NCBI RefSeq assembly: GCF_003334785.1 | Contig: NZ_QOWV01000002.1 | Direction: 5' to 3' (one strand) | Length of the DNA stretch: 64,000 bases | Source of the DNA: Escherichia coli | GTDB taxonomy: Bacteria; Pseudomonadota; Gammaproteobacteria; Enterobacterales; Enterobacteriaceae | In this document: positions 14,532 to 22,975 of the stretch, one piece after another | Layout: every line of letters begins with the position of its first letter | How positions within the stretch are numbered: the first letter of the stretch is position 1 | Made by a program: the position numbers and the translations under genes | The notes under the pieces: model-generated | Told to the model about the DNA's origin: nothing | Databases searched by the model: none | The model's input: only the letters and a program-made list of their open reading frames with translations

Positions 14532-14804
14532 ATGTCTCATACAATCCGTGATAAACAGAAACTGAAAGCGCGTGCCAGTAAGATTCAGGGCCAGGTCGTG
14601 GCGCTCAAGAAAATGCTCGACGAGCCGCACGAATGCGCTGCAGTTTTACAACAGATTGCTGCTATCCGTGGCGCGGTAAACGGTCTGATGCGGGAAGTGA
14701 TTAAAGGTCATCTGACGGAACACATCGTTCACCAGGGGGATGAGCTAAAACGTGAAGAAGATCTGGATGTCGTTCTGAAGGTGCTGGATTCATATATCAA
14801 ATAA
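14532..14804 (+). CDS. rcnR: Ni/Co-responsive transcriptional repressor RcnR (CsoR/RcnR family)
   Basis: 90 aa, [61 protein letters not shown]. Confidence 0.9.
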
Positions 14805-14894
14805 TTTATTAACGCGATTGTAAAACTGCCGTTTTTCCTCGTTTACAACGCGTGCGCTGGACATTACCATCCTCCTCTGCGATTTATCATCGCA

Positions 14895-15026
14895 ACCAAA
14901 CGACTCGGGGTGCCCTTCTGCGTGAAGGCTGAGAAATACCCGTATCACCTGATCTGGATAATGCCAGCGTAGGGAAGTCACGGACCACCAGGTCATTGCT
15001 TCTTCACGTTATGGCAGGAGCAAACT
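14895..15026 (+). ncRNA. TPP riboswitch (thi-box) in the thiM leader
   Basis: Contains the conserved thi-box CTGAGAAATACCCGTATCACCTGATCTGGATAATGCCAGCGTAGGGAAG, ending at the thiM Shine-Dalgarno/ATG. Confidence 0.85.
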
Positions 15027-15815
15027 ATGCAAGTCGACCTGCTGGGTTCAGCGCAATCTGCGCACGCGTTACACCTTTTTCACCAACATTCCCCTCTTGT
15101 GCACTGCATGACCAATGATGTGGTGCAAACCTTTACCGCCAATACCTTGCTGGCGCTCGGTGCATCGCCAGCGATGGTTATCGAAACCGAAGAGGCCAGT
15201 CAGTTTGCGGCTATCGCCAGTGCCTTGTTGATTAACGTTGGCACACTGACGCAGCCACGCGCTCAGGCGATGCGTGCTGCCGTTGAGCAAGCAAAAAGCT
15301 CTCAAACACCCTGGACGCTTGATCCAGTAGCGGTGGGTGCGCTCGATTATCGCCGCCATTTTTGTCATGAACTTTTATCTTTTAAACCGGCAGCGATACG
15401 TGGTAATGCTTCGGAAATCATGGCATTAGCTGGCATTGCTAATGGCGGACGGGGAGTGGATACCACTGACGCCGCAGCTAACGCGATACCCGCTGCACAA
15501 ACACTGGCACGGGAAACTGGCGCAATCGTCGTGGTCACTGGCGAGATGGATTATGTTACCGATGGACATCGTATCATTGGTATTCACGGTGGTGATCCGT
15601 TAATGACCAAAGTGGTAGGAACTGGCTGTGCATTATCGGCGGTTGTCGCTGCCTGCTGTGCGTTACCAGGCGATACGCTGGAAAATGTCGCATCTGCCTG
15701 TCACTGGATGAAACAAGCCGGAGAACGCGCAGTCGCCAGAAGCGAGGGACCAGGCAGTTTTGTTCCACATTTCCTTGATGCGCTCTGGCAATTGACGCAG
15801 GAGGTGCAGGCATGA
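15027..15815 (+). CDS. thiM: hydroxyethylthiazole kinase
   Basis: 262 aa, [34 protein letters not shown]... Confidence 0.9.
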
Positions 15816-16612
15816 AACGAATTAACGCTCTGACGATTGCCGGTACTGATCCGAGTGGTGGTGCGGGGATTCAGGCCGATCTTAAAACCTTCTCGGCACT
15901 TGGCGCTTATGGTTGCTCAGTTATTACTGCACTGGTGGCGCAAAATACCCGTGGCGTACAGTCGGTGTATCGCATTGAGCCTGATTTTGTCGCCGCCCAG
16001 CTCGATTCGGTGTTCAGCGATGTGCGAATCGATACCACTAAAATCGGTATGCTGGCGGAAACCGATATTGTTGAAGCGGTGGCAGAACGGTTGCAACGTT
16101 ATCAGATCCAAAACGTGGTACTCGACACCGTTATGCTGGCAAAAAGCGGCGACCCGCTGCTTTCACCTTCGGCGGTTGCTACGCTGCGCAGTCGATTATT
16201 GCCACAGGTTTCATTAATAACGCCAAACTTGCCCGAAGCTGCCGCCTTGCTCGACGCGCCACACGCGCGCACCGAACAGGAAATGCTGGAACAAGGGCGA
16301 TCGCTGTTGGCGATGGGCTGTGGCGCAGTGCTAATGAAAGGTGGTCATCTGGATGATGAGCAAAGCCCGGACTGGCTGTTTACCCGCGAGGGTGAACAAC
16401 GGTTTACCGCACCGCGCATTATGACCAAAAACACCCACGGCACTGGTTGTACACTCTCTGCGGCGTTGGCTGCACTACGCCCGCGCCATACAAACTGGGC
16501 TGACACCGTACAGGAGGCAAAAAGCTGGCTTTCATCGGCGTTAGCCCAGGCCGACACGCTGGAAGTTGGTCACGGTATTGGTCCGGTTCACCACTTCCAC
16601 GCCTGGTGGTGA
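15812..16612 (+). CDS. thiD: hydroxymethylpyrimidine/phosphomethylpyrimidine kinase
   Basis: 266 aa, [34 protein letters not shown]...; start overlaps the thiM stop (ATGA). Confidence 0.9.
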
Positions 16613-22817: not shown

Positions 22818-22975
22818 ACGCCTTATACGAACAACACCACCCCGTAGGACGGATAAGGCGTTTACGCTGCATCCGGCAACCTATGCCTGATGCGACGCTG
22901 AAGCGTCTTATCATGCCTACATAGCACTGCCACGTATGTTTACACCGCATCCGGCATAAAAACACGCGCACTTTG
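22818..22975. repeat. cluster of REP (repetitive extragenic palindromic) elements
   Basis: GGATAAGGCGTTTACGCTGCATCCGGCA, GCCTGATGCGACGCTGAAGCGTCTTATCATGCCTACA and TGTTTACACCGCATCCGGCA units. Confidence 0.65.

Follow-up and report, generated by a model that had tools for sequence, protein, structure and literature searches.

The thiM locus and its leader

The window, a stretch of 64,000 nucleotides of Escherichia coli DNA (contig NZ_QOWV01000002.1), contains the spacer between rcnR and thiM. The following features were assigned at this locus, all positions being those of the window:

14532–14804: upstream ORF, RcnR (protein profile match)
14842–14870, + strand: sigma-70-like promoter candidate, TTTACA-17 nt-TACCAT, the only match of a consensus scan in the region
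14902–14979 (P1 5' to P1 3'), + strand: structured core of the TPP aptamer (THI element, RF00059)
15027–15815, + strand: thiM (hydroxyethylthiazole kinase), the regulated gene, 262 aa (TIGR00694, 341 bits at a cut-off of 256; RefSeq)
15812–16612, + strand: thiD (HMP/HMP-P kinase), second gene of the operon, overlapping the thiM stop codon (TIGR00097, 363 bits)

The whole window was scanned with Rfam 15 at gathering thresholds, which yielded three matches. One of them, RF00059 (TPP), is located at 14896–14992 on the + strand and scores 71.2 bits against a gathering score of 54.3, covering model positions 1–105 of 105 with an E-value of 5.1e-12 (64-kb window, both strands). A preliminary description had placed a thi-box element upstream of thiM at 14895–15026 and had named this covariance model scan as the way to check it; the match is significant, and the profile scores confirm thiM as the downstream gene, with thiD next. 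The interval comprises aptamer and expression platform and is off by no more than one base at either end. It was said to end at the thiM ribosome-binding site, and indeed the Shine-Dalgarno (SD) sequence GGAG (15017–15020) lies inside it and its end is one base before the ATG at 15027. The P1 end of the aptamer core is located 48 nt and the Rfam match 35 nt 5' of this ATG on the same (+) strand. In identical sequence of other E. coli genomes RefSeq carries the label “TPP riboswitch” at the same place in the rcnR-thiM spacer. A 68-aa antisense ORF overlapping the aptamer (14790–14996, − strand) was found to be without support and was treated as a chance ORF.

The two remaining Rfam matches are the sRNA CyaR/RyeE (RF00112) at 61592–61677 on the − strand (100.7 bits, E-value 6e-19, full model) and naRNA4 (RF02564, nucleoid-associated ncRNA / REP-type paired hairpins) at 22847–22917 on the + strand (64.5 bits, gathering score 59.5). 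In the preliminary description no structured RNA regulator other than the thi-box element had been recognised in the window, which is incomplete since CyaR is also present.

The region 14532–15028 is an exact substring of the E. coli K-12 MG1655 genome (NC_000913.3, complement of 2185300–2185796, 100% identity). The sequence is therefore that of the original thiM riboswitch biochemistry and structures, on which the idea of a riboswitch was first put to the test. When a 281-nt query around the element was compared with 5426 complete E. coli genomes, matches were found in 5425 of them, many at 100% identity.

Anatomy of the aptamer and the expression platform

For comparison with the literature we used a register in which published nt 1 corresponds to window position 14892. 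The model of Winkler et al., as restated by Lang, Rieder and Micura 2007, places the anti-anti-SD at nt 83–86, an ACCA loop at nt 96–99, the anti-SD at nt 108–111 and the SD at nt 126–129 (PMC2018614). In our register all four published elements land on the expected letters. The parts of the leader are as follows:

14902–14905 / 14976–14979, + strand: P1, 4 bp, GACU with AGUC (Rfam alignment; Lang et al. cited)
14906–14909 and 14911 with 14936 and 14939–14942, + strand: P2 (Rfam alignment)
14912–14918 with 14924–14929, + strand: P3, C14915 bulged (Rfam alignment)
14906–14942, + strand: pyrimidine-sensor arm consisting of P2, P3 and the thi-box core CUGAGA at 14929–14934 (Rfam alignment)
14948–14973, + strand: pyrophosphate-sensor arm with P4 (14948–14951/14970–14973) and P5 (14954–14957/14964–14967) (Rfam alignment)
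14974–14977, + strand: anti-anti-SD GAAG, overlapping the P1 3' strand (published nt 83–86; pairs with CUUC in the free MFE fold)
14983–14994, + strand: small hairpin GACC-ACCA-GGUC with the ACCA loop at 14987–14990, part of the extended ligand-free helix (published nt 96–99)
14996–15002, + strand: anti-SD strand UUGCUUC, core CUUC at 14999–15002 (published nt 108–111)
15017–15023, + strand: SD GGAG (15017–15020) plus CAA, 3' strand of the sequestering helix P8 (published nt 126–129)

The optional P3a stem of the RF00059 model is absent from the Rfam alignment of this element. We take the ligand contacts of the crystal structures to be U39-G40-A41-G42-A43 for the pyrimidine and G60, C77 and G78 for Mg-pyrophosphate (thiM numbering). 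These residues map to U14930, G14931, A14932, G14933, A14934, G14951, C14968 and G14969, and all eight putative contact positions are among the invariant columns of the 75-sequence alignment described below.

Predicted switching between two folds

We folded nt 1–165 (14892–15056) with ViennaRNA and enforced the aptamer pairs as a proxy for the TPP-bound state. The free MFE structure is the published ligand-free fold: 14962–14980 pairs with 14997–15016, including GAAG:CUUC and the GACC-ACCA-GGUC cap. In the free ensemble G15017, G15018 and A15019 are unpaired with 73–77% and G15020 with 8%. With the aptamer enforced, the MFE structure contains a 7-bp P8 between UUGCUUC (14996–15002) and GGAGCAA (15017–15023), and the unpaired probability drops to 0.00 at all four SD bases. 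The leader thus holds two mutually exclusive pairings, GAAG:CUUC in the free and CUUC:GGAG in the aptamer-enforced computation, and the computed folds reproduce the translational OFF-switch model. Taken over its full length, the leader has an MFE in the range of shuffled sequences (z = −0.22), as expected for an RNA poised between two folds, with ligand and tertiary contacts outside the energy model. For such a bistable, ligand-stabilised RNA the value is uninformative and was counted in neither direction.

According to this model, the anti-SD is paired with the 3' portion of the aptamer when TPP is scarce, centred on GAAG (14974–14977) with CUUC (14999–15002); the SD GGAG (15017–15020) stays free and thiM is translated. 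Upon binding of TPP the aptamer P1–P5 (14902–14979) locks and P1 absorbs part of GAAG. The released UUGCUUC (14996–15002) then pairs with GGAGCAA (15017–15023), by which the RBS is hidden.

Many Firmicutes TPP riboswitches use intrinsic terminators. A thiM element that acts mainly in this way, as in the thiamine operons of Bacillus, and not by hiding the RBS is highly improbable to us. The fall of thiMD mRNA upon addition of TPP (Bastet et al. 2017, PMC5499598) would be compatible with such a mode; however, transcriptional fusions need 20–34 thiM codons to respond to TPP and bicyclomycin abolishes the effect on the mRNA level, which makes the drop Rho-dependent and secondary to translation (PMC5499598). 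The leader moreover leads directly into SD and AUG. It has in substance been reported that transcription in vitro without Rho yields no TPP-dependent short transcript with its end in the leader. No G+C-rich hairpin followed by a T run was found in 14700–15200, and with 0 intrinsic-terminator-like sites in this region the intrinsic-terminator model was ruled out. Control at the level of translation, as proposed in the preliminary description, is in agreement both with this result and with the pairing of anti-SD and SD when the aptamer is folded.

Candidate promoter and Rho-dependent termination

The consensus scan that yielded the promoter candidate gave 1 site where 0.5 are expected, so that the match is weak when taken alone. 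In the numbering of Bastet et al. 2017, codons 9–40 correspond to nt 174–271 from the transcription start site (PMC5499598). With this numbering the start site would be located near 14878 (about 14876–14880), 7–8 nt 3' of the promoter candidate. The same authors located a rut site at about nt 200–210, where Rho protects nt 201–210, and regard Rho termination as a consequence of the translational block (PMC5499598). Inside thiM we found a C-rich and G-poor stretch at 15067–15101 on the + strand (36% C, 4–16% G per 25 nt), which presumably corresponds to the published rut region at about +200.

The earlier wording of a classic translational-control riboswitch is therefore appropriate as to translation and needs to be refined by the coupling to Rho-dependent termination, which takes place within the first 34 thiM codons and lowers thiMD mRNA (PMC5499598; PMC11487190). 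As the published experiments have it, thiM mRNA that is not translated exposes the C-rich rut about 50–75 nt into the ORF, Rho terminates transcription, and thiD expression falls as well.

Comparison of enterobacterial thiM leaders

A search for ThiM with one genome per species resulted in 80 loci, among them Escherichia, Kluyvera, Kosakonia, Klebsiella/Raoultella, Enterobacter, Cedecea, Buttiauxella, Pantoea, Providencia and others. A thi-box lies about 60–100 nt 5' of thiM in 75 of the 80 loci. We aligned 74 thi-box loci and the window with MAFFT (alignment A1, 75 leaders). P1, P2, P4 and P5 are invariant across the 75 leaders: all 4 P1 pairs are present in 75/75, and in the P4/P5 arm, which is essentially invariant, 99.7% of cells are paired. 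Since these helices do not vary they are uninformative on covariation, and covariation support comes from P3 only, where both partners of the three inner base pairs have changed in a compensatory way in 9, 7 and 10 of 75 sequences. Taking all 30 pairs together (23 of the aptamer and 7 of P8), 94.5% of cells can pair in comparison to 31–56% in controls slid by 1–3 columns. RNAalifold recovered P1–P5 plus CUUC:GGAG without structural guidance.

The letters of the switching elements are equally well preserved. GAAG, the UUC of CUUC and the GGA of GGAG are invariant in 75/75 leaders; the first C of CUUC is found in 73 and the last G of GGAG in 74 of them, and the CUUC:GGAG core pairs in 74–75 of 75. 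Both alternative pairings are therefore possible in essentially every orthologue.

MAFFT did not align the hairpin that separates P1 from the anti-SD consistently from clade to clade (55.7% paired), and for this reason we used an alignment-free helix search for this part of the leader (A1 columns 115–171). It revealed two platform designs among the 75 leaders. The longest helix that masks the SD includes CUUC in 29 leaders (Escherichia, Kluyvera, Klebsiella/Raoultella and others), and here UUGCUUCU:AGGAGCAA covaries with UCGCUUCU:AGGAGCGA. Its place is taken in 40 leaders (Kosakonia, Cedecea, many Enterobacter, Buttiauxella and others) by CCUGYCCGGY:GCCGGRCAGG, which is located upstream of CUUC and present in several compensatory variants. 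Equilibrium folding gave a drop in SD accessibility of more than 0.3 with the aptamer enforced in 12 of the 75 orthologues, nearly all with the Escherichia/Kluyvera/Klebsiella-type platform. In leaders of the second type the SD is masked by another helix whether or not the aptamer is enforced, which means that equilibrium folding misses their switch.

Two Pseudocitrobacter species, P. faecalis and P. vendiensis (L028 and L029, around 1130–1200), deviate from this picture. The 5' two-thirds of the aptamer are replaced by unrelated sequence, the loss covering the P1 5' strand, P2, P3 and CUGAGA; retained is TAATGCCAG(C/T)G(T/C)AGGGAAGTC through anti-SD, SD and ATG. These leaders are decapitated riboswitches of natural origin and probably leave thiM constitutive. 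In a Pseudocitrobacter MAG (L019) the full aptamer is still present. No thi-box was found upstream of thiM in Providencia vermicola, P. rettgeri and P. heimbachae (L038, L052 and L059, around 1040–1215). In these thiM lies close behind another ORF, and it is thus not under a TPP riboswitch of its own.

Integrase islands inside the riboswitch of other E. coli

697 of the 5425 E. coli genomes with a match align with less than 80% of the 281-nt query. In isolate AF3, MRY15-131 and STEC711 an island of 2.9, 7.7 or 8.5 kb lies between two annotated TPP riboswitches. All three islands begin with a 435-aa tyrosine integrase (phrog_1 integrase) and are bounded by a perfect direct repeat of 82 nt that equals window 14893–14974, i.e. 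the aptamer minus the P1 3' strand. The repeats are located at:

L084: 424–505 and 3352–3433
L085: 19902–19983 and 27633–27714
L086: 19902–19983 and 28376–28457

The native thiM promoter stays with the left aptamer copy (L084:427–522), for which the TPP model gives 61.3 bits. In the left copy of L084 the P1 3' strand is replaced, with an AGUC found 9 nt further on. The ATG of the integrase (L084:589–1896) follows 66 nt past the left aptamer copy. The right copy is complete and precedes thiM. Integrase DNA was detected in 147 of 5426 complete E. coli genomes and is always chromosomal.

This structure bears the signature of a site-specific integration into riboswitch DNA. We see about even chances that the aptamer DNA 14893–14974 is the empty attB of tyrosine-integrase islands, whose insertion would duplicate the 82 nt. 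thiM would then keep a complete switch and lose its native promoter, and the integrase would come to lie 66 nt behind the promoter and an aptamer copy. Judged from this arrangement, transcription of the integrase could start at the thiM promoter, and TPP might influence its expression. In the literature library that we searched, no description of the thiM riboswitch, or of any riboswitch, as an integration site or attB was found. In the window itself the site is unoccupied and carries no island.

Besides the RNA switch, a role of the DNA itself as attachment site could also contribute to the conservation of 14893–14974. The perfect 82-nt repeats around the islands of three genomes, each with a tyrosine integrase, and the integrase DNA in the 147 genomes would be in line with such a contribution. 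However, genera in which we saw no such island conserve the aptamer just as well, the window lacks the island, and the conservation of TPP aptamers extends over all bacteria, so that RNA function fully explains the conservation. We therefore regard selection on an attachment site as very unlikely and attribute the conservation to the riboswitch.

In O157:H7 (YB14-1, L002:731–3000) an island remnant of 2.27 kb replaces window 14805–14892, which comprises the entire spacer between rcnR and the riboswitch with the candidate for the native thiM promoter, and homology resumes exactly at window 14893. The remnant contains an outer membrane protein, a hypothetical protein and an HTH-like fragment, and no integrase. 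In its last 250 nt (right end) no sigma-70-like promoter was found on the + strand.

Relation to known riboswitches and significance

That the thi-box is a chance or decayed sequence and no working switch is the least probable of the alternatives, to a degree that makes it negligible, since nothing apart from the non-significant z-score of the whole-leader MFE speaks for it, whereas the full-model match lies 17 bits over the gathering score, the aptamer core is invariant in 75 orthologues at the level of genera and species that all carry it directly 5' of thiM, the leader is identical to the experimentally characterised K-12 leader, and the genuinely decayed Pseudocitrobacter leaders look quite different from the window. 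It is virtually certain that we are dealing with the TPP riboswitch of E. coli thiM, which acts in cis as a 5'-UTR RNA and shuts off thiM-thiD at high TPP.

The TPP riboswitch of E. coli K-12 thiM was reportedly described by Winkler, Nahvi and Breaker in 2002, and crystal structures of the aptamer are said to have been published in 2006 by Serganov et al. and by Edwards and Ferre-D'Amare. The element in the window is the same object: identity is 100% over 14532–15028, all published positions map, and there is no difference. Beyond mere membership in RF00059 it is the E. coli K-12 type example and as such already known.

The TPP riboswitches of Firmicutes, for example in the B. subtilis tenA and thiC leaders, share RF00059 and the ligand with the thiM element. 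The tenA and thiC leaders of B. subtilis have a terminator/antiterminator platform; unlike these terminator-type riboswitches, the thiM leader contains no terminator. Closer relatives are found in E. coli itself. The tbpA (thiB) riboswitch shares the aptamer class, the logic of SD sequestration and a secondary control on the mRNA level, and its secondary structure is very similar to that of thiM according to its authors (PMC11487190). It differs in that it belongs to a transporter operon at another locus and in that 12 codons, in comparison to 34, are needed for the mRNA-level effect (PMC11487190). The thiC riboswitch shares aptamer class, ligand and the repression of thiamine biosynthesis genes, but it has a larger platform with a Rho site within the riboswitch, and both transcription and translation are directly controlled (PMC11487190). 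Binding of TPP by RNA of identical sequence has been published (PMC2018614, citing Winkler 2002 and crystal structures), and there are also reporter data on it. TPP binding, repression in vivo and the role of Rho are based on published experiments; the present analysis showed the aptamer match, the identity to K-12, the two exclusive pairings, the lack of an intrinsic terminator, and conservation and covariation.

For this chromosome the finding means a correct annotation which ties the expression of thiM-thiD to cellular TPP. The thiM element belongs to the founding cases of riboswitch control and its structure has been solved, and to find it again in an E. coli chromosome adds nothing new to riboswitch biology. 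The lead of wider interest is the island only. In about 13% of complete E. coli genomes an island or remnant bounded by aptamer sequence parts the riboswitch from its native promoter, and one has to ask how the strains concerned, O157:H7 included, transcribe thiMD.
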